A DNA stretch of 64,000 bases from Klebsiella phage EI, in sequence record MN106245.1; one strand, 5' to 3'. Of the stretch, positions 1,906 through 52,100 are shown in pieces (position 1 is the stretch's first letter; each line of letters starts with the position of its first letter). The translations under genes were made by a program, and so were the position numbers. A model generated the notes under the pieces. The model was not told where the DNA came from, made no database searches, and was given only the letters and a program-made list of their open reading frames with translations.

Positions 1906-2924
1906 GCACTGGCCTCGATATACAGTTGAGTAGCTAATGCTTTAAGAGCATCGATGTCATCTTGAGATGTCGCGTCAGGAAGAGCTTCAATATATTCCAT
2001 CATCATATCAAGCAGACCCACTACTTCTTCTTCGTCGGCTTCTTCAGTGTCAACAGAGTTATCTACTTTAGAAACTGTGCGAAGTTCATGAACTACTTTT
2101 TCAAGCTCACTTTCGAAGGCTGGTAGTTTATCGTCTACCTTGGTAATAACTACACGAACTGCTAGATTTTTAAATTCATTTGCATTAAATGGCCCTGTTA
2201 CAGGGTAGAAGATTTTCCTGTGCCATGTTGTTTCGTTAGGGATGAAATCAAATGTTTGTAGCCGAGTGTCTTGAACCCAGAATCCTCGCGGGTCGTTCTC
2301 GTCACCCGCTGTAAGCGTCCAAGGCGTTCCGATGTACTTAACGTTTGCTGCGCTTGATATTGTGTGGAAGTGCCCAGACCATACTTGTTTGTACTTTTTG
2401 AGGAAATCTGGTTCGAGCCCATGAGATTTCATACCTTTATAAAAATAGAAGCCATTTAGCTCCCAGTGACCAATACAGTATTCAGCGCTAGACTGCTTGA
2501 TATGGTCCATGATTTGAGTTGTGTTTTCATCGCACATCCATGGAATCAAATCAATCAGGGTTCCATCGAAGTCTAAAGTCGTAGGCTTTTCAATAACCGT
2601 AACGTTATCGTATTTTCCCATTACTTCTTGAGCCGCGTTAGGAGTTAGAGTATTTTTATAGTGGCAGTCATGGTTCCCAACAATTGTAATAAGCTTAATA
2701 TTAGCATCATCAAGCTCTTTAATAATTTGTCGAGCAAACTCCATACACTTGTGAGTAATTGCTTTACGGACGTCAAAGATATCGCCGTATTGGATGATTG
2801 TGTCAATACCATTATCTTTAGCGTATTGAATATGGTCTCTGATGCCTTTCAATTGTATTTCTTGGACCCATGGGTCGTCAGCTTTAACACCTAAGTGCCA
2901 ATCGCCGCTATGAATTATTTTCAT
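1902..2924 (-). CDS. 47: recombination endonuclease subunit gp47 (Mre11/SbcD-like phosphoesterase)
   Basis: MKIIHSGDWHLG and GNHD phosphoesterase motifs; ORF opens at 3005 but likely start is the MKIIH Met; overlaps gp46 start by 4 nt. Confidence 0.92.
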   Translation of the reverse strand: MKIIHSGDWHLGVKADDPWVQEIQLKGIRDHIQYAKDNGIDTIIQYGDIFDVRKAITHKCMEFARQIIKELDDANIKLITIVGNHDCHYKNTLTPNAAQEVMGKYDNVTVIEKPTTLDFDGTLIDLIPWMCDENTTQIMDHIKQSSAEYCIGHWELNGFYFYKGMKSHGLEPDFLKKYKQVWSGHFHTISSAANVKYIGTPWTLTAGDENDPRGFWVQDTRLQTFDFIPNETTWHRKIFYPVTGPFNANEFKNLAVRVVITKVDDKLPAFESELEKVVHELRTVSKVDNSVDTEEADEEEVVGLLDMMMEYIEALPDATSQDDIDALKALATQLYIEASA

Positions 2925-3525
2925 TTCGAATTCGTTCCCACATTTTAGTAGCTGCTGCAGAAGCAGAGCCTGGAAGTTTACCTTTAACCCACCCATCAGG
3001 AACATTATCAGGATGAATCATCTTATGTTCTATTCCGTTATTATACCACTTCTTACCCTTATTGTGGCAAGATGCTTTATACTTCGGAGAACGGCCTTCT
3101 ATAAATCCTTCTGGGATAAATGGTGCAAACGACTGTTCTAAAGTTTCAGGATGATAAGAATGGATATTACCAGAACCGTTATGGCTTCCATATAGAGGGT
3201 GCTTTTCTTTAGAAACATCTCTCCCAAAACAACCGTTAGGTACAGCAAAAGACATATTCATGAAAAGAGGAGAACGAACTACGTCATGAAGTTTTTGATA
3301 GTGCAACTCATTTGCAATAGCTTCTTGCCTGGTTTCAAATTGCTCTAAAAGAATTGTATCGAATAATTCAGGATGCTCTTCTTTCTCTTTATCATAAATT
3401 TCTTTGTATGCTTTAGAAATAACAGTACCGGTATAGCCTTCCATATGTTTCTTTAAGGAAGAAGAGCCAATGTAGAAAGGAGGGAGTTTATCTCCAGAAT
3501 AAATTGTTAGATAAGTTATATACAT
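2908..3525 (-). CDS. putative GIY-YIG (Seg-like) homing endonuclease
   Basis: N-terminal IYSG...YIGSS motif, C-terminal WYNNGIEHKMI..PDGWVKG NUMOD-like DNA-binding motif; sits where T4 has alpha-gt. Confidence 0.5.
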   Translation of the reverse strand: MYITYLTIYSGDKLPPFYIGSSSLKKHMEGYTGTVISKAYKEIYDKEKEEHPELFDTILLEQFETRQEAIANELHYQKLHDVVRSPLFMNMSFAVPNGCFGRDVSKEKHPLYGSHNGSGNIHSYHPETLEQSFAPFIPEGFIEGRSPKYKASCHNKGKKWYNNGIEHKMIHPDNVPDGWVKGKLPGSASAAATKMWERIRNENNS

Positions 3526-3536
3526 AGTTACCCTAA

Positions 3537-3560
3537 AAGGGCCGAAGCCCTTTAAATTTT
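3537..3560 (-). terminator. rho-independent terminator hairpin (GGGCCGAAGCCC stem)
   Basis: aagggccgaagcccttt followed by T-run on minus strand. Confidence 0.5.
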
Positions 3561-3740
3561 ACGATACGTGATAGTACCTTCAGCTTTAGCTTTATCGTAA
3601 GCGAAATTGAACCGGTTAATCATTTCATTCTTATCGCTACGAATCTTTGCATAATCAATTGCTTTTTCCAAAGCTTCAGGAGAATACATAGCCCCGTTAC
3701 GAGATAATGTATTCGCTTTAGCTATTACAGCTTCCATCAA
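3552..3740 (-). CDS. hypothetical small protein
   Basis: 62 aa ORF followed by hairpin terminator. Confidence 0.4.
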   Translation of the reverse strand: MMEAVIAKANTLSRNGAMYSPEALEKAIDYAKIRSDKNEMINRFNFAYDKAKAEGTITYRKI

Positions 3741-3822
3741 CCTTCACCGAAGCCGACCTTGGTTTCTACAACGCCAAGATCGTCTACATCATGGATAAAG
3801 TATTCAGAAGAATCAGGTTCTC

Positions 3823-4020
3823 TTACCATTTATACCACCTTTTAATTTGTGCAGTGTCAGCCCATACAAGCTCTTTCGGATCAGCTTTAATAATCACCCC
3901 TGTTGAGCCTAGAATGCGATAGTGCGTTTCTGATATTTTAACAGCCATAGTACCATTAGCTATAGACAGAGTGAATCCTGCGTTAACCTGCAAACGTTTA
4001 AATTTTACCTGCTTGATCAT
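3823..4020 (-). CDS. hypothetical small protein
   Basis: 65 aa ORF in minus-strand gene train. Confidence 0.35.
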   Translation of the reverse strand: MIKQVKFKRLQVNAGFTLSIANGTMAVKISETHYRILGSTGVIIKADPKELVWADTAQIKRWYKW

Positions 4021-4366
4021 TGATAATGTCCCAAATGATTTTGCGAGAGGTCTGCCAACCGGTCAGAATAATCTCATCAGTGTATGGTTGGCGTAAGATG
4101 TCACGAGATTTCTCGATAGCATACTTATACGCCGGGAAGTTATTGTCAAGAACAGCTACTTGAGCGTGTTTATACAAACGGTCAAGTTCATGACGGTTCT
4201 TACGGTAAATTTTATTAGCTTTTGCCTGCGCCTGACTTTCAGCAATAGCTTGCTGAGCCAGAATCGCTTCTTCAATTTCGTCCTTCTTGACACCACGTTT
4301 TTCTAGTGCTTCAGTGATGCTATCAATTTCAATCTCAGTCATTTTATACCTTAGGAATGTAATCAA
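3998..4366 (-). CDS. hypothetical protein
   Basis: 122 aa ORF overlapping neighbours by short junctions. Confidence 0.45.
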   Translation of the reverse strand: MITFLRYKMTEIEIDSITEALEKRGVKKDEIEEAILAQQAIAESQAQAKANKIYRKNRHELDRLYKHAQVAVLDNNFPAYKYAIEKSRDILRQPYTDEIILTGWQTSRKIIWDIINDQAGKI

Positions 4367-4601
4367 TTACTACGCTAAATCCGTCATCAGAAACATTATA
4401 CTGATGGTTAATTAAAGCAGTTTCGGATGTGATATCCGTATCGTGTGGGTTCTTAGGGTCAATGTGAATATCAAGGTCAAGTATTTCCCTTAGATACATT
4501 TTAAGCAAATAAGGGATAGCATCTTGGTCTTGCACTTCTTCTAAAAATCCTTCGAGGTTAATCTTGAGCCTCATATAAAAATTCCAATTCATTACCTTCA
4601 A
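4344..4601 (-). CDS. hypothetical protein
   Basis: 85 aa ORF immediately downstream of gene 55. Confidence 0.4.
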
Positions 4602-5127
4602 CTACCGGTTCACTCTTTTTATCAGACCCAGGTGCCTTGTATGCTGAGGTTTCGTATTGCGTCATTTTATCGTAGATGTCCTGAATAAAGGTTTCATCTG
4701 CTAACGCAACCATATCATCGTCACGACTATCATAAACGTTGTGAACGAAGTAGCTATATTTCTTTGCCATTTCTTTGCGTTCTTTTTTGATACGCTGGAC
4801 GAAGGCATTAAAACAAGCCATTGTAATATATGCATGAGGGTTGGTGTATTTGGTTTCGTCGAAGTTATGAAGACCTTTAATTGCGGCTTCAATACCGTCT
4901 GCAATCATTTCTTGCTTCCAAGACTGGGTATATCCTGAGAAGTTGAATCGTTTGCTCAGACCTTCGGCTATTAACATGATGGCAAGGCCAATCGTGTCAT
5001 TTTGTCGCGCTTTAGTCCCTTCGGGAGCATTTCTAACCTGTTCCTTCCAAGCACAAATAGCTTTGTACAACTCCTTATTATTTACGTAATCACTCATAAT
5101 TGGCCTCATCAAATAGTATATATTCAT
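4558..5127 (-). CDS. 55: late-transcription sigma factor gp55
   Basis: 189 aa; [17 protein letters not shown] region matches remembered T4 gp55 N-terminus; correct synteny. Confidence 0.9.
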
Positions 5128-5163
5128 TATATCATCGGATGCGAAGAGGCCGCTTAAAGCATA

Positions 5164-5430
5164 TTACAGCTTACGAAGAATGCAGTACATTTCAAATAAA
5201 CGTTCACAGATACTAAGGAACTGTTCATAGTTTAAAGAAAAAGTTATTCCGTTTTCTTGTTGGTATTGTACCAAGCCTTTATATAAGCGTTGATAATGGC
5301 TGTGGTTCAGTTCAGACACGTGGAAATTATACGAATCATCTGATGCATCACCAAATGGTAAATAATACACACCCATGTAACTATCTACAATAAAATGTTC
5401 ATCGTTAGCAATCAAAGTTAAGCTGTTCAT
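5164..5430 (-). CDS. hypothetical protein
   Basis: 88 aa ORF. Confidence 0.4.
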   Translation of the reverse strand: MNSLTLIANDEHFIVDSYMGVYYLPFGDASDDSYNFHVSELNHSHYQRLYKGLVQYQQENGITFSLNYEQFLSICERLFEMYCILRKL

Positions 5431-5702
5431 AACATACCATAGATTTCAGAGAATTTACGAATCATGAATTTCCAGTCCAGAACAGTTATTGCATATTCAG
5501 TATCAGGGTTTTCTTCATGAAGATAATCTAAAAGTTCTTTTAAAGATTCAGCGAACTCAGCATCTAGCATCTCATAGATGTCCATAACGTTGCGTTGCCA
5601 ATTCCCACACATCAGTTCGCCATCTTCAAATATTGTGAACTTTAATCCAAGGTTCTCAAAATAATAATCAACGTAATCCATCAGCGTAGATTCCTTGCAC
5701 AT
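5427..5702 (-). CDS. hypothetical protein
   Basis: 91 aa acidic ORF, 4-nt overlap with neighbour. Confidence 0.4.
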   Translation of the reverse strand: MCKESTLMDYVDYYFENLGLKFTIFEDGELMCGNWQRNVMDIYEMLDAEFAESLKELLDYLHEENPDTEYAITVLDWKFMIRKFSEIYGML

Positions 5703-5905
5703 TCATGAGCGTGTTCAAATACACCGAAAGCGTCAACAGAAATAAATGTATCTGAAGAAGTGTATTCGTATACCCACCAGGCATCAAAGTCTTCTTCAAT
5801 GAGCCAATCGATACCATTGGATGAACCTTCAATCAAAACACGCCCATCTTCGGTATGACTTATCAGATAACCAAGGTATCCGAGTTCAGCTAGTTGTTCT
5901 TCAGT
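5681..5905 (-). CDS. hypothetical protein (start refined to internal Met)
   Basis: ORF 5681-5989 overlaps next gene; MTEEQLAELGY start more plausible. Confidence 0.35.
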   Translation of the reverse strand, partial: TEEQLAELGYLGYLISHTEDGRVLIEGSSNGIDWLIEEDFDAWWVYEYTSSDTFISVDAFGVFEHAHECARNLR

Positions 5906-6182
5906 CATTAAGATAATCCTCAAGCTCTTTAAGTGTAAGACCTTCGGTCCAGCTTTTACTAAGACCTGAATAATCAGGGTGGTCCGCACTCATCATATAG
6001 AATCGGCACTTAACCGGAAGCCCGTGTTCTTTGTGCGTGAGACCAGATGTATGCAGGTTAACGTATCGTTGAACCATTATGATAGAAGCATAGCTATCAA
6101 CTAAATAAGGTTCACCGTTTCTTAGTTCTAAGATACGGAATCGTACACGTTTCGGGCAGCCTCGTTGATTAAGAACAATCAT
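5901..6182 (-). CDS. hypothetical protein
   Basis: 93 aa ORF. Confidence 0.4.
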   Translation of the reverse strand: MIVLNQRGCPKRVRFRILELRNGEPYLVDSYASIIMVQRYVNLHTSGLTHKEHGLPVKCRFYMMSADHPDYSGLSKSWTEGLTLKELEDYLND

Positions 6183-26161: not shown

Positions 26162-26464
26162 TTATTTACCTTTAATTGCTTTAGCTGCTTCGATAGCCGC
26201 TTGCTGAAGGTCATCCATAGACATACCGAACTTAGAAGCAAAGTTATCAATTTTCTTTTCGACAGAATTCAAAGGCTTGGCCTGTTTACCTTCATTAGCG
26301 CCAGGGAGAGCGAGAATACGCTCTTTGTCAATATAAAGGCTTACAAGTTTCTTACGGTCTTTATCGGGCAAATCATTAAATGAATGGGCCTTTTTATTTA
26401 CGGCGGCTTCTAATTTACCCGCACTTACTCGCGCTTCGGCGATAAATTCTTTATAGGTTTTCAT
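26162..26464 (-). CDS. internal head protein (CTS paralog, IPIII-like leader [13 protein letters not shown])
   Basis: 100 aa, CTS. Confidence 0.7.
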
Positions 26465-31197: not shown

Positions 31198-31482
31198 TCA
31201 CGAGACATGTTTACCTCTGCAATATTTGATGAAGCGGTTAATTTCAGCTTCAGTGATTTGTTGGTTTTCTACTATGATCCATTCACCGTCAATGAATTTA
31301 GCATCAGGATAAGTGAATCCATCTAATTCTTGGATAAGCTTTTCATAAAGATATGCGGCCGCTTTTACCTTTTCACGAACAGTGTACTGGGTGTACAGCA
31401 TATGCAAATACGCTACAGAACAAGTGCTTTCGAAGCCATGTTCATTTTGGTAATGCAAATAGCAATTTTTAACGAAAATCAT
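31198..31482 (-). CDS. hypothetical protein (start refined to MIFVKN)
   Basis: ORF to 31503 overlaps promoter module. Confidence 0.35.
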   Translation of the reverse strand: MIFVKNCYLHYQNEHGFESTCSVAYLHMLYTQYTVREKVKAAAYLYEKLIQELDGFTYPDAKFIDGEWIIVENQQITEAEINRFIKYCRGKHVS

Positions 31483-31530
31483 TGTTCCTCCTGTAAGGGT
31501 CACTATAACATGACCCTTAGTGAATGTAAA

Positions 31531-31767
31531 CTAGCAGTTCTGCATAGAGCTGGAATACCAGAAGCCTTGGTCGTGAGGCAGATAGTTATCATCACGAATC
31601 CATTTGTAGCTTTCCCACTCATCAGAGGTTACAGGGATATACTCTTCATTGCCAGCGCAGAAATGCTCGCCCGTTGCTTCTGCCATAGCTTCACCTTCAG
31701 AGATCAGTTTAGAAATGGCTTGTTCGACATCGCGGATTGTTCCAAGCTTAAATTCTGCTTTAATCAT
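31531..31767 (-). CDS. SSxC-tail small protein family member A
   Basis: 78 aa, C-terminal FWYSSSMQNC. Confidence 0.45.
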   Translation of the reverse strand: MIKAEFKLGTIRDVEQAISKLISEGEAMAEATGEHFCAGNEEYIPVTSDEWESYKWIRDDNYLPHDQGFWYSSSMQNC

Positions 31768-31776
31768 TTTATTTCC

Positions 31777-32031
31777 TTAACAAGAGCTAGGATGCCAAAT
31801 ACGACCATCTGCTTCTACATTAAATTCACGTCCAGCTTCTTCGCCATAACAAGAACTGTTCAGCCAATCTTCGAAACGAATAGAACCGTCGTAGGTGTCA
31901 AATTCAATACCGAAGTTCTGTTCACTAGCCATTTTAGAAACTTTGTTAAACAGGATAGCCAGTTCTTTTGCAGCTGCTTCTAATTCGGTTACATTACTCA
32001 TTTTTAACATTCCATAGATGAAGAGACCCAA
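31777..32031 (-). CDS. SSxC-tail small protein family member B
   Basis: 84 aa, C-terminal RIWHPSSC. Confidence 0.45.
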   Translation of the reverse strand: MGLFIYGMLKMSNVTELEAAAKELAILFNKVSKMASEQNFGIEFDTYDGSIRFEDWLNSSCYGEEAGREFNVEADGRIWHPSSC

Positions 32032-32285
32032 CCACCTGTTTCAAGGCTCGTGTAGTACTCGTGTTGATTAACGGTAGCCCATGAAGGATTACCTTGTTCA
32101 GTGTACTGCTCAAGTTCTTTCTTTAAGAAACCTGGCGAATAATAAGTACCGCCCATACCGTAAGCAGGACTAATAGTGAATTCAGTATTATAGCGATCTG
32201 CTACAACTTTAGCATGACGAATCGCATCATTAATAGCTTCAACCGCTTTAGCCATTTCTTCCTTAGGATTTCGTTTCATTAGCAC
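32004..32285 (-). CDS. SSxC-tail small protein family member C
   Basis: 93 aa, C-terminal GGWVSSSMEC; overlaps B start. Confidence 0.45.
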   Translation of the reverse strand: MLMKRNPKEEMAKAVEAINDAIRHAKVVADRYNTEFTISPAYGMGGTYYSPGFLKKELEQYTEQGNPSWATVNQHEYYTSLETGGWVSSSMEC

Positions 32286-32530
32286 ATCTCACTAGATGAA
32301 ACCCATGCGCCTTCAACCGTTTTACCGTTTTCGTCAAGGTCTACATCATAGCACTGGCAATAGTATTCAAGACCGTAGTCTTCAGCACTAGTACCTTTAG
32401 GGTAATATGTGCGGCCGTTACCATATTCACCTGTACTAAATGATACACCCATTTCGTCAGCGATAGCTTCTGCTTCAGCTTCGATCTGTTCAGTCAGGCC
32501 CATGACAGCCTTAATAGCTTCTCGTAAAGA

Positions 32531-33294
32531 GCACACGTCTGAACTCCAGTCACGAGTGGATATCTCGTATGCCGTCTTCTGCTTGAAAAAAAAAAGAATT
32601 TAAATATTTCGAGGATATTTGCATATCCATAGAGGACATATATAAAACAAGAGAAACATATACACCGTTCTATGATGATAGAGCTGATTATAATACTAAT
32701 TCAAAATCGTATTATGATTATGTTTCAAATCTATCAAAACTGATTGAAGTATTGGCACGTCGTATTTGGGAATATGACGGTGAATTAAAAAAACGTTTCA
32801 AAAATTGGGACGATTTAATGAAAAAATTTCCAGATGACGCTAAAGAATTATTTAGAGGATGGTTAAACGACGGTACGATTGATAAAATCATTCATGACGA
32901 GTTTACAAAATATTCTGCTGGACTAACTTCAGCTTTTGCTGTATTTAAAATTGCTGAAATGAAACAAATGAATGATTTTAAAGCAGAAGTTAAAGACTTA
33001 ATTAAAGATATTGACCGTTTCGTTAATGGGTTTGAATTAAATGAGCTTGAACCAAAGTTTGTGATGGGCTTTGGTGGTATTCGCAACGCAGTTAACCAAT
33101 CTATTAATATTGATAAAGAAACAAATCATATTTATACAACACAATCAGACTCACAATCTCCAGAGGGTTTTTGGATAAATAAATTAACCCCTAGCGGTGA
33201 CTTACTTTCAAGTATGCGTATAGTACAAGGTGGCCACGGTACAACAGTAGGTTTAGAAAGACAATCAAACGGTGAAATGAAAATACCATTTGTT
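32531..33294 (+). other. AT-rich inserted segment bounded by 51-bp direct repeats
   Basis: repeat copies at 32479-32529 and 33296-33346; composition visibly lower GC; only plus-strand coding in a minus-strand region. Confidence 0.5.
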
Positions 33295-33357
33295 TCAGCT
33301 TCGATCTGTTCAGTCAGGCCCATGACAGCCTTAATAGCTTCTCGTGCTGATTTATAA
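32752..33357 (+). CDS. hypothetical ORF carried on the insertion (TTG start, no in-frame ATG)
   Basis: about 200 aa open frame in AT-rich DNA; runs into the repeat; may be a 5'-truncated fragment. Confidence 0.3.
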   Translation: MARRIWEYDGELKKRFKNWDDLMKKFPDDAKELFRGWLNDGTIDKIIHDEFTKYSAGLTSAFAVFKIAEMKQMNDFKAEVKDLIKDIDRFVNGFELNELEPKFVMGFGGIRNAVNQSINIDKETNHIYTTQSDSQSPEGFWINKLTPSGDLLSSMRIVQGGHGTTVGLERQSNGEMKIPFVSASICSVRPMTALIASRADL

Positions 33358-33397
33358 TCATTGTATTCAGGAACTTCTACTTCAAAAGTATATTTGC

Positions 33398-33763
33398 TCA
33401 TTTTCTCATCTCTTTTAAGAAAGCTAAGGTTTCATCTCTGGAATCAAGAAGGCGCTGTTCTGCATTTTCTTTTTCCCACTCTTTTACTTCTTTTCGGTAA
33501 TTATACATATGTTTTAATTTAGCACAGCCATTAATGACATACGGTATAGCCATAATAGGGAATCCAAAAGAAAACCCAGTTACTATCATGATCAAAATTG
33601 ATAGTACAGACATCTCAGCATCCATTTCATTAATCATGAATGCCGGATAAAATATCATAGCACACAGACCTATAGTAAGTCCTGCCAGTATAAACAAGAA
33701 CTTGTCTGTAATTACCTTTGCATAACCCCAGTCAATAGGTTTATTGCGATAGTATCTAGCCAT
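33398..33763 (-). CDS. membrane protein
   Basis: 121 aa, two TM helices. Confidence 0.4.
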   Translation of the reverse strand: MARYYRNKPIDWGYAKVITDKFLFILAGLTIGLCAMIFYPAFMINEMDAEMSVLSILIMIVTGFSFGFPIMAIPYVINGCAKLKHMYNYRKEVKEWEKENAEQRLLDSRDETLAFLKEMRK

Positions 33764-34325
33764 TTACTGCCTCACGACAATGTTTGATGAACTCTTCTAC
33801 AACGATCTGCTTTGCTAATTCAGGGTTCTGGCTGAACTCATAGATCTCTGGCGACAGTACAGTTCTAAGATAAGTGCGCCGTTCACTATAGTACCCTTGT
33901 CCAGGCATATTAGTATAGTTAGGGTTGCAAAGTAAAGAAACCGTGTAAATTTTACCTTCAATCATAAATTCTAAGACAAAAGCAAAATGGTCCTCGTTTT
34001 TAGATAAAAACTTTGCCTTATCTCTCGCGTAAGAGAACCAATGCTCATTATCATCATTGTACGCGTAGATGCTGTATTCAAGTTGATAGATTCCTTCGAT
34101 ACGAGCACCATTATAACGACGGCTGAATTCCAGCACGATTTCTTTTATAAACTTAGTATTGGCCAGCATAATGGCAGGTGGGTATTTTTTGTTGTTATGG
34201 CTTCCACGGGTCTGCAAAAAATTATTTTCAGAGCAACGGTCTTGCATATATGGCATCAAAAGCTCAATAGCTTTTTCAGGGATACCTTTTTCACGCAGTG
34301 CTTCAACTTGTAATCTTTTAGACAT
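33756..34325 (-). CDS. hypothetical protein
   Basis: 189 aa ORF. Confidence 0.45.
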   Translation of the reverse strand: MSKRLQVEALREKGIPEKAIELLMPYMQDRCSENNFLQTRGSHNNKKYPPAIMLANTKFIKEIVLEFSRRYNGARIEGIYQLEYSIYAYNDDNEHWFSYARDKAKFLSKNEDHFAFVLEFMIEGKIYTVSLLCNPNYTNMPGQGYYSERRTYLRTVLSPEIYEFSQNPELAKQIVVEEFIKHCREAVNG

Positions 34326-34342
34326 AGTATTATCCTCTATTA

Positions 34343-34366
34343 TCCCAATAAGAGGGCCGAAGCCCT
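34343..34366 (-). terminator. terminator-like hairpin (AGAGGGCCGAAGCCCTCT)
   Basis: GC hairpin after the 34374 stop. Confidence 0.35.
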
Positions 34367-34373
34367 CTTCGCA

Positions 34374-34967
34374 TTACTTCAGAGAAGCCAGGTATTCCTG
34401 AACATCTGCAGTTGTGGTGGTAGTACCAGGTTCAGCACCGTTAAAGGTTTCAACCTTCATAGTGATGTCGTCGACAGATACTTTAGCCAGAGAAGCCAGT
34501 TCGATCACATCGTCGGCAGAGCTAATACCAAGATCAGCAGCAGAGCGAGTTTCACGGATGTATTCGAGCTTAACAGCCAGGTCCAGACGAGCATCGTCCA
34601 ACTCAACTACTTTACGTTCGATTTCTTCACGCATACCTGCATAACCAGCAGCTTTTTCACGCAGGGCCGCGGCAGTTCGACGATACAGAAGACCAAGCTT
34701 AGCGTGTGTTTCCACGTTCATGTTTTCAGCGATCAGACGACGAATTTCTTTTTCTTTCGATTCAGCCAGTTTATCTTTTTCGATGGCCAGAGCCAAGATA
34801 CGTTTCTCTTCATTGACAGACTTAACATGAGAAACACGAAGCTGCGTGATTTTGTCAATCAGGATGTTCGCCGCTTCAGTATACTGGTCTTCAACAGTAG
34901 TATTTTTAGCAACAAAGGTACCCAGTTTAGCACGGATGAATGCAACCAGTTTTTTCAGAATAGCCAT
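34374..34967 (-). CDS. PspA/IM30 (Vipp1)-like coiled-coil protein
   Basis: 197 aa; [19 protein letters not shown] start resembles PspA [19 protein letters not shown]; all-helical. Confidence 0.5.
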
Positions 34968-35888: not shown

Positions 35889-36078
35889 TCTACTTCCTCA
35901 ACATCAGCCCAGAATTCGTCAACAGTATACGTCTCATCGTCATCAGCAATAAAGAAGCCTTTAGATGAATCAATAGTATCTACAGCGTTATACTCGCTTG
36001 ATTCGGAAACACGAATCAGTTGTTGGCCGTTAGGCAGGACAAATTTCTCACCATCTTCAACATCTTTAAAAAATTTCA
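35885..36078 (-). CDS. hypothetical small protein (start refined to MKFFKDVEDG)
   Basis: ORF to 36208 overlaps promoter module. Confidence 0.35.
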
Positions 36079-36095
36079 TAATCACCTCATGTTTG

Positions 36096-36134
36096 TGTAG
36101 GAGTACTATACCACGTTCTTTTGAGTGTGTAAAC
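36096..36134 (-). promoter_or_regulatory. early-promoter-like module
   Basis: gtgtaggagtactatacc...gtgtgtaaac. Confidence 0.45.
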
Positions 36135-36453
36135 TGGTAATCTAAATGCCCGAAAGGGTTCCCATTTCTGAGAACCCTTTCTTCTCGGCTCTGATGACTT
36201 GGATGCACCCAGAGGTCATTCGCCAGCCTTACGTCTTCGAGTGCAATTCTAGGACGTCATTCTTTATTCTACGATGTAATCTTCAACAACATAAGTGCTG
36301 TAAGAATTCATCTTGGACATTTCGTCAGCGTATTCGTTTGCAGCTTCTTCAGATGCAAAGATTTTCCTAGGCAGAGAATACTCATTATACCCGTACTCGA
36401 CGTTCCAATTTTCTTCTACTACGACGTAAACTTTCATATTTTCCTCATAAATT

Positions 36454-36530
36454 TGGTGCCGGTTGACGGAATCGAACCGCCGACCTTCTCATTACAAGTG
36501 AGTTGCTCTACCTACTGAGCTAAACCGGCA
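36454..36530 (-). tRNA. tRNA-Thr (anticodon UGU), CCA encoded
   Basis: cloverleaf by hand, T-loop TTCGATT, anticodon loop cuUGUaa. Confidence 0.7.
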
Positions 36531-36534
36531 TAAG

Positions 36535-36610
36535 ACGGAAATAAGGATTCGAACCTTATGTAGTTGCACAGACGTATCTGCCGTTGAATTCCTCACTAAG
36601 TTTAAGCAAC
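36535..36610 (-). tRNA. tRNA-like gene, isotype unresolved
   Basis: canonical T-arm (TAAGG-TTCGAAT-CCTTA) but acceptor/anticodon pairing not resolved by hand. Confidence 0.35.
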
Positions 36611-36628
36611 TATTCCCAGGTCTTAATT

Positions 36629-36713
36629 TGGTGCACCGAGAGGGATTCGAACCCTCAATCCTTGCGGCGTAGCATTTTAAGTGCTATGTGTATACCAGTT
36701 CCACCATCGATGC
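36629..36713 (-). tRNA. tRNA-Leu (anticodon UAA), class II
   Basis: 85 nt, CCA encoded, long variable arm, loop cuUAAaa. Confidence 0.7.
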
Positions 36714-36717
36714 GAAT

Positions 36718-36794
36718 TGGTCGAGACAGAAGGATTCGAACCTTCGACCTGCGGATTAGAAGTCCGCTGCTCTATCCAGCTGAGCTATGTCCCG
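36718..36794 (-). tRNA. tRNA-Arg (anticodon UCU)
   Basis: 77 nt, D-arm GCTCAGCTGGATAGAGC, loop cuUCUaa, CCA encoded. Confidence 0.75.
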
Positions 36795-36802
36795 AGAATG
36801 TT

Positions 36803-36925
36803 CAGACAGGACTTGAACCTGTACGCTTAGGTCTGTTGCACCGGTTTCCGCCTTACTCACCTGGGTACCAACCAGGGTTTCAAACAAGCTATTCCGGTCG
36901 TGTCTACCGATTTCACCACTGAACA
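36803..36925 (-). ncRNA. 123-nt tRNA-like small stable RNA
   Basis: class-II-like 5' D-arm and 3' T-arm/acceptor that pair as a 7-bp acceptor stem but are 123 nt apart; adjacent to tRNA-Arg. Confidence 0.45.
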
Positions 36926-36935
36926 TTTAATAAGT

Positions 36936-37172
36936 TTATTTAGTATACTCTATAAAAGCTAAAGCAAAATGTGGATCTACCTTAACAATTTTATGAGATA
37001 CCTTGAATCGATACGAATAAGAATCTACACCAATCCCATGACCTGTTTTGCCAGTTACTTTACCAACACGCATTTCACCATCTTGGCCCATACCAGAGGT
37101 TTTTACACCAAATAAGATATAATCGCCTTCAAAAACTGGAACACCATGTCGGTCTTTCATTAATTCTATCAT
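36936..37172 (-). CDS. hypothetical protein
   Basis: 78 aa ORF. Confidence 0.4.
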   Translation of the reverse strand: MIELMKDRHGVPVFEGDYILFGVKTSGMGQDGEMRVGKVTGKTGHGIGVDSYSYRFKVSHKIVKVDPHFALAFIEYTK

Positions 37173-37621
37173 TTCGAAGCCTTAAGCATTTCACGTACTC
37201 GATAAAGATTGCTGCAGAACTCTTGTTCGGTCAGAACAGTTTCGTTCTTTTTAGACCGTCCCATAGAGTGAGTTAACGTAGCGTTCTGTGTGGCCAGGAT
37301 AGCTCTCTTGAATCCTTCATTAGTGGCCAATTGATTATATGCCCTTTCAATAAGAAGCGTATAGGCGTCACTCTGGCGTTGCATAGGGACGCCTTTCCAG
37401 TACAGAGTTTGCGTACGGAACCATTTCTTCTTTTTACCTTTGAACTTAGCTGCTTTACCAACTAAAGTGCAAACGTGTGCAGCCATTTCAGGAGAGCTGA
37501 ACTTCAACGACTGTAAGAAGCCTTCCATTGAAGCACATTTAACGCCGTCTATTTCAAAAGCATGCGGAGCAAAGTTGCTTAAAGCGCAACTAGGGTAACT
37601 TGACCCTGAGCCAATGTCCAT
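37169..37621 (-). CDS. NADAR (YbiA/DUF1768)-family protein
   Basis: SNFAPHAFEIDGVKCASMEGFLQSLKF aligns to YbiA SNFAAWPIKVDGKTWPTSEHYFQAQKF core. Confidence 0.6.
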   Translation of the reverse strand: MDIGSGSSYPSCALSNFAPHAFEIDGVKCASMEGFLQSLKFSSPEMAAHVCTLVGKAAKFKGKKKKWFRTQTLYWKGVPMQRQSDAYTLLIERAYNQLATNEGFKRAILATQNATLTHSMGRSKKNETVLTEQEFCSNLYRVREMLKASK

Positions 37622-37884
37622 TAGATATCCTCTACGTGAATCATGATTGAGCGTCGACGAACAACGCATCCTTTAAGTTCTTCAGCAGCTTCAATTAGTA
37701 CACGGCCCGACGGAAGAATAAGCCCGTCAATTCGCTGTTGGGCCCGTGCTATATCCGTAAAACCATCTGCTTCAAGGAGCCCTGTGAATTCCCATCCTTC
37801 CCAGCATTCGTTATTAACGAATGAAGCATATGAGCCGAATTCTGGATTAAAAATTACGTAATCTTGTTGCATCTGTTGTTCCAA
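37621..37884 (-). CDS. hypothetical protein
   Basis: 87 aa ORF. Confidence 0.35.
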   Translation of the reverse strand: MEQQMQQDYVIFNPEFGSYASFVNNECWEGWEFTGLLEADGFTDIARAQQRIDGLILPSGRVLIEAAEELKGCVVRRRSIMIHVEDI

Positions 37885-38189
37885 ATTTTAGTTAGACCAG
37901 CATGCTCGAAGGCACGCATACAAGAAAGACCGACTTTACCGTGTTCTTCCCACTCGATGATTCTATCATTATCTCTGAAAGCAAGACCTTTGGCTGGTTC
38001 AGCGTAAGGCTTCAATTCTTCAGGAACTTCATCCATAGAATCATAGACCACAGTAACGCCACCTTTACAACCTGCGATACCTACACCGCATTTGCATTCT
38101 AACACACAACAACTATAACTGATATACGTAAAAGGGAATCTTTCGCCACAGAAAGGGCAGGGGAGTAAATCTTCATTTAGAATGGTCAT
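37854..38189 (-). CDS. Lar-like restriction-alleviation zinc-finger protein
   Basis: 111 aa; N-terminal LLPCPFCG motif plus Cys-rich core. Confidence 0.35.
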   Translation of the reverse strand: MTILNEDLLPCPFCGERFPFTYISYSCCVLECKCGVGIAGCKGGVTVVYDSMDEVPEELKPYAEPAKGLAFRDNDRIIEWEEHGKVGLSCMRAFEHAGLTKIWNNRCNKIT

Positions 38190-38211
38190 AATATTTTTCT
38201 CAGTAGTTGAT

Positions 38212-38300
38212 TGGACGGAACGCCTGGACTCGAACCAGGTTATAGAACAATTGGCGTTGCACTACATTTTTATGAGGCCAACAAATCGTTTCCTCAACAG
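38212..38300 (-). tRNA. tRNA-like element with aberrant anticodon arm (possible pseudo-tRNA), CAU-type loop
   Basis: encoded CCA, T-arm CCTGG-TTCGAGT-CCAGG; stem TTGGC...GCCAA encloses CTCATAA plus 14 extra nt; no acceptor partner found. Confidence 0.3.
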
Positions 38301-38359
38301 GCACGTCGCCAAACGTGTCATCCTGGAGAAAAGTCAATGTGTCCTCGAACCGATTAATT

Positions 38360-38436
38360 TGGTGACCCCATCTGGACTTGAACCAGAAACCTACCAGTTA
38401 TGAGCCGGGTGCTCTAACCAATTGAGCTATAGGGCC
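38360..38436 (-). tRNA. tRNA with CAU anticodon (Met or lysidine-Ile)
   Basis: 77 nt, CCA encoded, D-arm GCTCAATTGGTTAGAGC, loop cuCAUaa. Confidence 0.65.
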
Positions 38437-38623
38437 AAAAGCTCTGTGCGATATTCTGCCAGAGCGTCATTATCCGGGTCTAAAGAGTACAAACAAGTAG
38501 GTTATTGTAGAACACAGCGTACTGTGGGAACAGCGCCTTCGGTCCCGGCATTTACTTACGGACCTCTAACTCATCTCTTTAGACTGCCATGTAATTATCT
38601 TTCGTAGGGATACGAATCTCTCA

Positions 38624-38639
38624 AGCTTTCCGGAAAGCT
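38624..38639. repeat. perfect 16-nt palindrome AGCTTTCCGGAAAGCT inside non-coding gap
   Basis: read directly. Confidence 0.6.
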
Positions 38640-38879
38640 GAATAAGAGTTAATGGCTCTCATATACCCGTGCACAGATATAATCTTTGTTAACACATTAA
38701 CTGAATCGCTATACCTCGAAAGATAACTAGTACCTTCCTGCGCCGATTCAAGCTGTGATATACCTGGTTTCAATGAGGGACCTGTATAACAGGGAACGTC
38801 AGTTCGACGACTTGCGAGTGCGCATCCATCTGGGCTAGGCCTCAACAAGGTCATTACCAGTTTGGTCTCGCTTCTTATT

Positions 38880-49172: not shown

Positions 49173-52100
49173 CAATTGCACCTTTCGTCACCAGCTTACG
49201 TATTCACAAGCTATCAGCGAACCAGGTCAATATTCGTTGGGATGACGTTGGTGCAAACTTCTACTATTTTGTAGAAATAGCCGAGATCGAAGATGAAACC
49301 GGTCGAGAAGTCGACCGTTCTTCTTTAAGTTGGCGTGCACTAGGTTATACCACTGAAAACGAATGGTTCGCAAATAACTTGCGTCCTATGACCACGTACA
49401 GAATGCGTGTACAATCGACAGCAGCCGGATTCGAACCTTCGGAATGGGTAGAAACTGAAGACTTTGAAACATTTGAAGTTAACGCCTACACATTTGAACA
49501 GATGAGCCAATTCATGCTTATGAAGCCGTTCATTGAAGAAAAGTTCGTTAAGAACCGTATGAACTATGTTAATTTCAATACGGCTGCATTACAGGCATCG
49601 TTGATGGCTGAAAACTTTCCTATCTCTACTGAATATAAAGATCTTTCCCAAGTTAGACAGTATGTTTTAGGCGAAGATGAATTCCATGAAATTCAAGGGC
49701 CTATAGAAGCGGTCTGTGTAGATAAAGACAGAACCATGCTTGCTGAAATAGATGGCAACCTCTATCTGTTTGAACGTTTCCAGCACATGGTCAAAGTATC
49801 GAACGATAAAGGCCAGAACTGGCATTACATACGCCTCTTTAGTGATCGCGTAGGCAATCCTGTTTCAAGGACATGTGTTTATCAATCCAACACTACTACA
49901 TACGTCCTGGGCTATAATAAAGTGTTCTATGGGCGTAAATCTAGCGATGTTCGTTGGTCGTCAGATGAAGTTCGTTTTAGCGATAACGAAGTAACATTTA
50001 CTAAGTTAGGTGACCAGCTTAATTTAGGGTTCGAAGTAGAAATCTTTGGTGTATATGCTTCATGGCCTGGTATTCTTAATACTAGAGTAGAAGCTATGAC
50101 CGTTAACAATACACACTTATATGGTGTAGCCAGAGACACAGTTCGCAGAATTAAATTAAAACAAGCTCCAGTTGATACCGTTATTGGGTCCCCTACATTC
50201 GGTGAAAAGTTATTTGAGCCCGAAATAATCAGAATAACCGGCGATGACCTAGCTGTTTGTTATAAAATGGATTCTATCGGTGGCAAAATCTTTGCTCTTA
50301 TTACAGGCCGTTTAAAATCAGCAGGGCTTGATGCATCTGACCCTAAAAATGTTGAATGCGTATCTAAAGAAGCTGAAGCAATTAAAGGCGTTTACGTATT
50401 TGACGAAGATACTTTAAGCTTTAGAAGAGTTTTTGGTACTACAGCAGAAGAACGCAGGAGAATTGAGCACGGATGGTCTAGTATGTCCACTGATGGCCAA
50501 GAATTGTTCTTTAGCTCAGGCGACTTTCGGTATAACGAATATGTTCCTGATAATGAACTTCCTTTAGAAAATCCTGCTACGGTTACAGAAGCTATTTCAT
50601 ATTATGCTCCTTATCAGTATCATCATGATAAACATTGGCATATGATGAGCTTCCGATCTAACGAAAATAGCGGTTGGGAAGAGTTTAAACCTGGCCGTAT
50701 GAAATTTTATGCCGAGCCTTGGTTTAACTGGATGGCCCGTTCTGGAAATAGAAACTTGGTTACTACTACGGACCATGCTTTAGTAGTTTATAACAACACT
50801 ACTTATACCAAGTATGTTGATACTCTGTCTTTAACAGATCCTAACCGTATTTTGCATGAAATTTGGAACAAAGGCGATGGTGTATTCTATTGTCCTAACG
50901 TAGAGTTCGATAGCTTCTTAAAATATGCCTCTGGTATCATGTTTCATGAGCCTGATGGTACTTTAGTAGGGTTCTATGAATTTGAATACAGAGTCAGAGA
51001 TTATGTTAAGATTACTTGGAAACCTAAAAATGTGATGTTCAAAGCATTTTTACAAAACCAAGAACACGAAGTTCCTTGGACGCCAACAGAAGATACAGGT
51101 CTCCAAGACCCGGATTTAGTTCCTTTAGTTCGTAAAATGATGCCGGACAGTTATTTGCTTCAAGATACTAACTTTGAAGCTTTCAGTAATTATTATTTAC
51201 AATTCATTTCTAAAGGATATGGAACCCATTATAATAAGCTTCTGAATCTGGTTCGTGATAAGTACCCTAGAGAAGAACATGCCTGGGAATACTTATGGTC
51301 TGAAGTTTATAAGCGTAATATCTACCTGTCAAAGGAGCGGAGAGATGCTGTAGTACGTTTCTTCGAAGCCCGTAAAAATGACTTCTACGCCACAAAAGGT
51401 ATTGAAGAAAGCTACAAGTTCCTGTTCAAGCTTTTATATAATGAGGATGTTGAAATTGACATCGAATCTAAAAACAGCACCGAATATGATATAGTTGTTG
51501 ACTCTGATAATATCAATGACGATATTGTGGGTCGTACGATTTACACAGCTTCAGGTCGTTGTAATGTGACATATATTGAGCGTGAATACGTTGACGGTAA
51601 GCTTCTATGGCGTATGACTATTCATAATATGATAGGTCGATTTGTCGCTGGTCAAGAAGTTAAATCTGAAAAGAGCTCTTTTGAAGGTATGATTGTTGTG
51701 GGTGTTCGTGGTAAAGAACTTATTTCTAATACCATAGAATATATTAACCGTTCTCGTTCTTATTATGTGATGAAAATTCGTTCTTCTCTTCCTACTTCTA
51801 GATACAGAGATGACGTACTGAGATTTGTTCATCCAGTAGGTTTCGGCTTCGTTGGCATTACTTTGATCACGATGTTTATTAATGCTGGTCTTAGTATGAA
51901 ACACGTTGAAACCACCATAAATAAGCTCAAGAACTATAAGTGGGACTCAGGCATTCCTTCGTATTATCCTGACAGAAATGCCGCAATTTCTCCTAGTGGA
52001 ACTATAGAACGAGACGCATGGGGTGACCCTATTTACTACGATAATGTAAACAAAGGTGTTCCTTACCCGTGTACTCAAGAATATATCACAGAGAATAATA

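Follow-up and report, generated by a model that had tools for sequence, protein, structure and literature searches.

Illumina adapter contamination in genome assemblies is screened for by NCBI VecScreen and FCS-adaptor. For Nanopore data, a counterpart survey found embedded adapter or barcode fragments in 5,782 GenBank accessions (PMC13182109). We analyzed a locus of this kind in a 64-kb window, the whole stretch of 64,000 nucleotides from the record of Klebsiella phage EI (MN106245.1), in which a small gene is interrupted by extra DNA between two perfect direct repeats. Like untrimmed-adapter contamination in deposited assemblies, the locus has a synthetic library oligonucleotide inside a genuine genome, incomplete trimming, and false features. 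It differs from the usual form in the position of the adapter, which lies inside the contig instead of at its end, and in what accompanies it, namely approximately 690 bp from another organism and a 52-bp duplication of the host sequence. It also resembles the cross-sample chimeric contigs of multiplexed phage sequencing, as a high-identity piece of an unrelated Rosenblumvirus is present in a Marfavirus contig and absent from its relatives, although here only one short fragment is involved and the rest of the window is Marfavirus-colinear save for natural indels.

Homing-endonuclease genes, morons, and transposons with target-site duplications share several features with this locus, being compositionally foreign, flanked by direct repeats, and gene-interrupting. 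Unlike genuine phage insertions, however, the insert has no complete gene and no mobility function, contains a synthetic adapter, and is absent from relatives. A duplication of 52 bp also far exceeds typical target-site duplications. The insert belongs with the adapter and contaminant artefacts of deposited assemblies and is a member of no biological insertion class.

The extra 820 bp in the record (32526-33345) are almost certainly a sequencing or assembly artefact in the genome of a T4-like Klebsiella Marfavirus. They comprise 768 bp between the two repeat copies, made up of a single A, 59 nt of adapter, ten A's, 690 bp of Staphylococcus-phage-like sequence, and 8 nt, plus the second copy of the repeat (Table 1). 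The exact direct repeat is 52 nt long with a start-to-start spacing of 820, and none of 100 shuffles of the window contained two occurrences of the repeat string. An earlier sequence-only reading had described a 51-bp string at 32479-32529 and 33296-33346; the string is indeed present twice, but those coordinates deviate by 4 nt for the first copy and by 1 nt for the second, and the exact repeat is one nucleotide longer.

Table 1. Positions in the window of the features at the interrupted gene, of the open reading frames to be disregarded, and of the segments that lack a counterpart in PWKp18.
Feature	Position	Strand	Remarks
3' part of split 100-aa gene	32279-32525	-	PWKp18_00275 homologue; phrog_899, function unknown
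52-bp repeat copy 1	32474-32525	none	genuine Klebsiella phage sequence, part of the split minus-strand gene; contiguous with left flank in PWKp18
Single A	32526	+	between phage sequence and adapter; not assignable
Illumina TruSeq indexed adapter, index 23 (GAGTGGAT)	32527-32585	+	last 59 of 65 nt, exact
A10 homopolymer	32586-32595	+	directly 3' of adapter end
Internal fragment of Staphylococcus Rosenblumvirus minor tail protein (receptor-binding protein) gene	32596-33285	+	approximately codons 5-236 of 646; without start or stop codon
8-nt filler CCATTTGT	33286-33293	none	matches neither Staphylococcus nor Klebsiella phage in the junction alignments
52-bp repeat copy 2	33294-33345	none	contiguous with right flank; redundant copy from false join; 52-mer single-copy in relatives
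5' part of split 100-aa gene	33346-33401	-	start codon 33401-33399; continues through one 52-mer copy
False ORF to disregard	33132-33401	-	89 aa, chimera-specific
False ORF to disregard	32279-32536	-	
False ORF to disregard	32752-33357	+	
Segment without PWKp18 counterpart	2925-3534		
Segment without PWKp18 counterpart	5431-5680		
Segment without PWKp18 counterpart	26169-26432		
Segment without PWKp18 counterpart	36135-36145		
Segment without PWKp18 counterpart	36280-36620		
Segment without PWKp18 counterpart	38353-38471		

The composition of the interval sets it apart from the rest of the window. The Staphylococcus-like fragment had a GC content of 0.317, whereas the window as a whole had 0.405; all 1237 other windows of 690 bp were higher (minimum 0.352, mean 0.406), in agreement with the earlier description of the interval as more AT-rich than its flanks. 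In 150-nt windows between 32550 and 33150, GC content ranged from 0.29 to 0.33, while the flanks ranged from 0.39 to 0.47; the statement that 32590-32740 is almost devoid of G and C was therefore an overstatement.

Copy 1 of the repeat is followed by the single A, then by AAGAGCACACGTCTGAACTCCAGTCAC-GAGTGGAT-ATCTCGTATGCCGTCTTCTGCTTG, and then by the ten A's. As a query against the window, the 59-nt adapter sequence matched without mismatches, with 0 matches expected by chance (100 shuffles). The sequence of TruSeq Adapter Index 23, including its index GAGTGGAT, is printed in PMC10000876, and the 8 nt at 32554-32561 are this catalogue index. Upstream of the index, 27 of the 33 nt of the adapter constant segment GATCGGAAGAGCACACGTCTGAACTCCAGTCAC (AAGAGC...GTCAC) are present exactly at 32527-32553, while downstream the constant 3' segment ATCTCGTATGCCGTCTTCTGCTTG is matched exactly at 32562-32585. 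Compared to the full sequence in PMC10000876, the first six adapter bases, GATCGG, are absent from the left junction. The sequence-only reading had overlooked the adapter altogether. Poly-A directly after an adapter end is what Illumina reads show on running off a short library molecule, and the A10 homopolymer looks like such a read-through tail. Elsewhere in the window, a second adapter-like 10-mer, AGATCGGAAG, which is the start of Illumina adapters, occurs once (50650-50659, minus strand); it continues with CTCATC rather than AGCACA and was rejected as a chance match.

All 74 matches of 32596-33293 among phage records were to Staphylococcus phages, the best reaching 97.0% identity over 690 nt, and each fell within a gene that carries the annotation 'minor tail protein'. 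This bears out the earlier view that the insert is foreign. The interval 32591-33285 aligned without gaps to Staphylococcus phage SA1-CTA1 (MK922546; Rosenblumvirus, S. aureus host, 17.5 kb) at 96.8% identity (673/695), corresponding to nt 14-708 of a 1941-nt gene, and the whole SA1-CTA1 genome had no other match in the 64-kb window. The translated fragment matched the phrog_287 'minor tail protein' profile (E 4e-65) over positions 7-210 of 628 only, and PF21311, the phage 5-bladed beta-propeller receptor-binding platform, over positions 1-62 of 255 only. From this truncated coverage it follows that the fragment is cut at both ends, with its right end inside a domain. No complete gene, promoter, or mobility gene was found in the insert.

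Mismatches to SA1-CTA1 were unevenly distributed. Ten of the 22 fall in the leftmost ~43 nt (32595-32637) and are mostly non-synonymous (7 in non-synonymous codons); the other 12 are spread across 650 nt and are mostly synonymous, leaving the rest of the fragment at ~98% identity. Since no Staphylococcus phage in the collection exceeded 89% identity over 32596-32670, the left edge looks error-rich or hybrid, which suggests a low-quality or hybrid consensus of the kind expected beside a false join. At the right junction, only 4 of the 8 positions of the filler CCATTTGT agree with Klebsiella sequence lying upstream of the repeat. An imperfect inverted repeat of 16 nt, paired with 33118-33133, was also noted; repeats of this kind are common by chance in AT-rich DNA.

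On the plus strand, the reading frame through the insert is open from 32587 to 33357, and the ORF listing starts it at a TTG at 32752. The sequence-only reading suggested that this ORF was a truncated foreign gene, and it is indeed an internal piece of a Staphylococcus phage gene. Contrary to what had been claimed, another plus-strand frame is open in the region, as 31330-31983 encodes 217 aa. The 217-aa ORF was called mechanically, overlaps minus-strand genes, and is probably spurious.

The gene interrupted by the insert could be restored from the record. When 32526-33345 was deleted, the restored protein was identical to PWKp18_00275 at 100 of 100 residues, and it was exactly the 100-aa protein that the sequence-only reading had written out on removing the insert and one repeat copy. 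It matched phrog_899, a family of unknown function that corresponds to the 'SSxC family' of that reading, with an E-value of 7.5e-21. Three small paralogues lie in tandem here, all on the minus strand: 31777-32031 (84 aa), 32004-32285 (93 aa), and the split gene (32279-32525 and 33346-33401, 100 aa). All three end in W-x-SS-x(0-2)-C and match phrog_899, with E-values of 1.6e-08, 2.2e-18, and 7.5e-21, respectively, and none has a Pfam match. These tandem paralogues are a real family, independent of the artefact.

Related phages carry the gene uninterrupted. The flanks of the insert are those of a T4-like Klebsiella phage of the genus Marfavirus (~170 kb), with ~98.6% identity to PWKp18 and F48. 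The interval 31500-34500 matched 23 Klebsiella Marfavirus records and, among the matches listed, did so in two pieces spanning ~2181 bp, compared to 3001 bp in the window. After removal of 32526-33345 from the window, a 2181-bp ungapped alignment to PWKp18 was obtained at 98.6% identity, with the 110 nt around the junction identical. Four independent Logan assemblies, which stem from different sequencing runs and share an identical neighbouring 121-aa protein, all had the 100-aa gene intact and the 52-mer in a single copy. The insert was absent from the Klebsiella relatives among the matches listed for the 23 records and from 4 of 4 Logan assemblies, and a search of IMG/VR viral contigs with the 32-nt phage-adapter junction returned 0 hits. 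The chimera-specific 89-aa ORF likewise had no entry in the public gene-position index. The question of whether related phages have the uninterrupted gene, raised by the sequence-only reading, is thereby answered: those compared lack the insert and have the 52-mer in single copy. These alignments show that the true phage sequence runs straight from 32525 to 33346.

We propose that in a library with index 23, reads from short inserts would have continued past the insert end into the adapter and on into poly-A, and been left untrimmed. Reads from an S. aureus podophage may have been in the same read set, through cross-contamination or bleed-through at the bench or on the flow cell. The assembler could then have connected the read-through tail with the start of the Staphylococcus gene (GAAAATGATTTTAAATA), both being rich in A, and followed ~690 bp of Staphylococcus reads, before re-entering the Klebsiella path, via a chimeric or an error-rich, low-quality read, at the same 52-nt stretch that it had left. 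Because such a false path leaves the true path and rejoins it at a single place, the 52-nt stretch would be written twice and appear as a direct repeat. Speculatively, its length would fit a de Bruijn k of ~51-53. Some details count against an artefact: the adapter lacks GATCGG, and neither the single A in front of the adapter nor the 8-nt filler ahead of copy 2 is accounted for by this route. At 768 bp, the insert is also beyond the reach of one Illumina read; its assembly must have drawn on several Staphylococcus reads, and hence on more than trace contamination.

Other origins were weighed against these data. The sequence-only reading favored a recent horizontally acquired cassette, that is, a Staphylococcus phage tail-gene fragment captured by short-homology recombination or duplication-capture with a 52-bp target duplication. 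Perfect repeats at its boundaries, a foreign composition, and the open reading frame kept within it all speak for such a cassette, but at the left end of the insert lies a synthetic Illumina adapter complete with library index and trailed by poly-A, a combination that cannot arise in a phage. Its cargo, cut inside a domain, has no start codon, stop codon, promoter, or mobility gene, and neither the listed matches to the 23 Marfavirus records nor the four independent assemblies contain it. To our knowledge, the two phages, one infecting a Gram-positive coccus and the other an enterobacterium, share no host in which they could recombine. Because of the multiplex-indexed adapter, the non-functional fragment, its absence from relatives, and the lack of a shared host, horizontal transfer is excluded for practical purposes, and we consider a genuine acquisition exceedingly improbable. 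The same minute likelihood applies to a version in which the Staphylococcus fragment is physically in the Klebsiella phage DNA through cross-phylum phage-to-phage transfer, with only the adapter and poly-A locally misassembled. That synthetic sequence is present could also point to deliberate engineering, with the insert as a cloning scar or construct remnant of a modified phage. Engineering is nonetheless implausible: what is synthetic here is a multiplex-indexed sequencing adapter with its read-through tail, as opposed to a vector, marker, or recombineering scar. The accompanying gene fragment, moreover, is non-functional, and we give this origin next to no probability at all.

The fallback offered by the sequence-only reading, an assembly chimera, is the one that the index-23 adapter, the A10, the Staphylococcus phage fragment, and its absence from relatives bear out. 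Within this artefact explanation, the false join may instead have been physical, with Klebsiella and Staphylococcus phage fragments, and possibly the adapter, ligated during library preparation and faithfully assembled. The right junction, where Staphylococcus sequence meets Klebsiella sequence through 8 untemplated nt, resembles ligation or template switching rather than an overlap. However, one chimeric molecule alone would lose out to the normal coverage of a phage genome, except if the assembler resolved it into a loop. A full-length adapter 3' end that is internal and continues into A10 is, moreover, generally the mark of a read running off its molecule, not of ligation within a molecule. 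We therefore regard an in vitro chimera as a possible but rather unlikely variant.

An artefact produced by either route has no function in the phage; all it does is interrupt one small gene in the record and generate false ORFs. The insert is not a real phage feature and its biological interest is very low; its importance is for quality control only. As deposited, the record shows two false truncated ORFs in place of a real 100-aa gene, along with a false plus-strand ORF of ~200 aa that gives a Klebsiella phage the look of encoding a Staphylococcus receptor-binding protein. This could be misread as cross-phylum horizontal transfer or as the product of a recombination mechanism. The record needs correcting by deletion of 32526-33345, and the rest of the sequencing project warrants screening for adapter and Staphylococcus podophage reads.

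Apart from the insert, the 64-kb window was colinear with PWKp18 except for the six short uncovered stretches in Table 1. We considered these as candidates for further chimeras and rejected that idea, since those compared are covered by other Klebsiella Marfaviruses and look like natural indels. The segment at 26169-26432 is present in F48. No adapter or Staphylococcus match was found in 36280-36620 or 38353-38471; these two segments lie in a region where relatives annotate a tRNA cluster, R3_1 covers 94% of 35900-38700, and both look like natural indel variation. The 250 bp at 5431-5680 (GC 0.35) are absent from PWKp18 and most relatives and have ~96% identity in pzk-kv8 and phi1_146055; judged from these sequences, this is a natural variable small-gene region. 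The ~610-bp segment at 2925-3534 is absent from PWKp18 and most Marfaviruses. HMGUkp2 covers 93% of a 2500-6000 query, with an annotated HNH endonuclease among the features under the match, and the segment is probably a homing-endonuclease presence/absence polymorphism that matches the HNH endonuclease of HMGUkp2.
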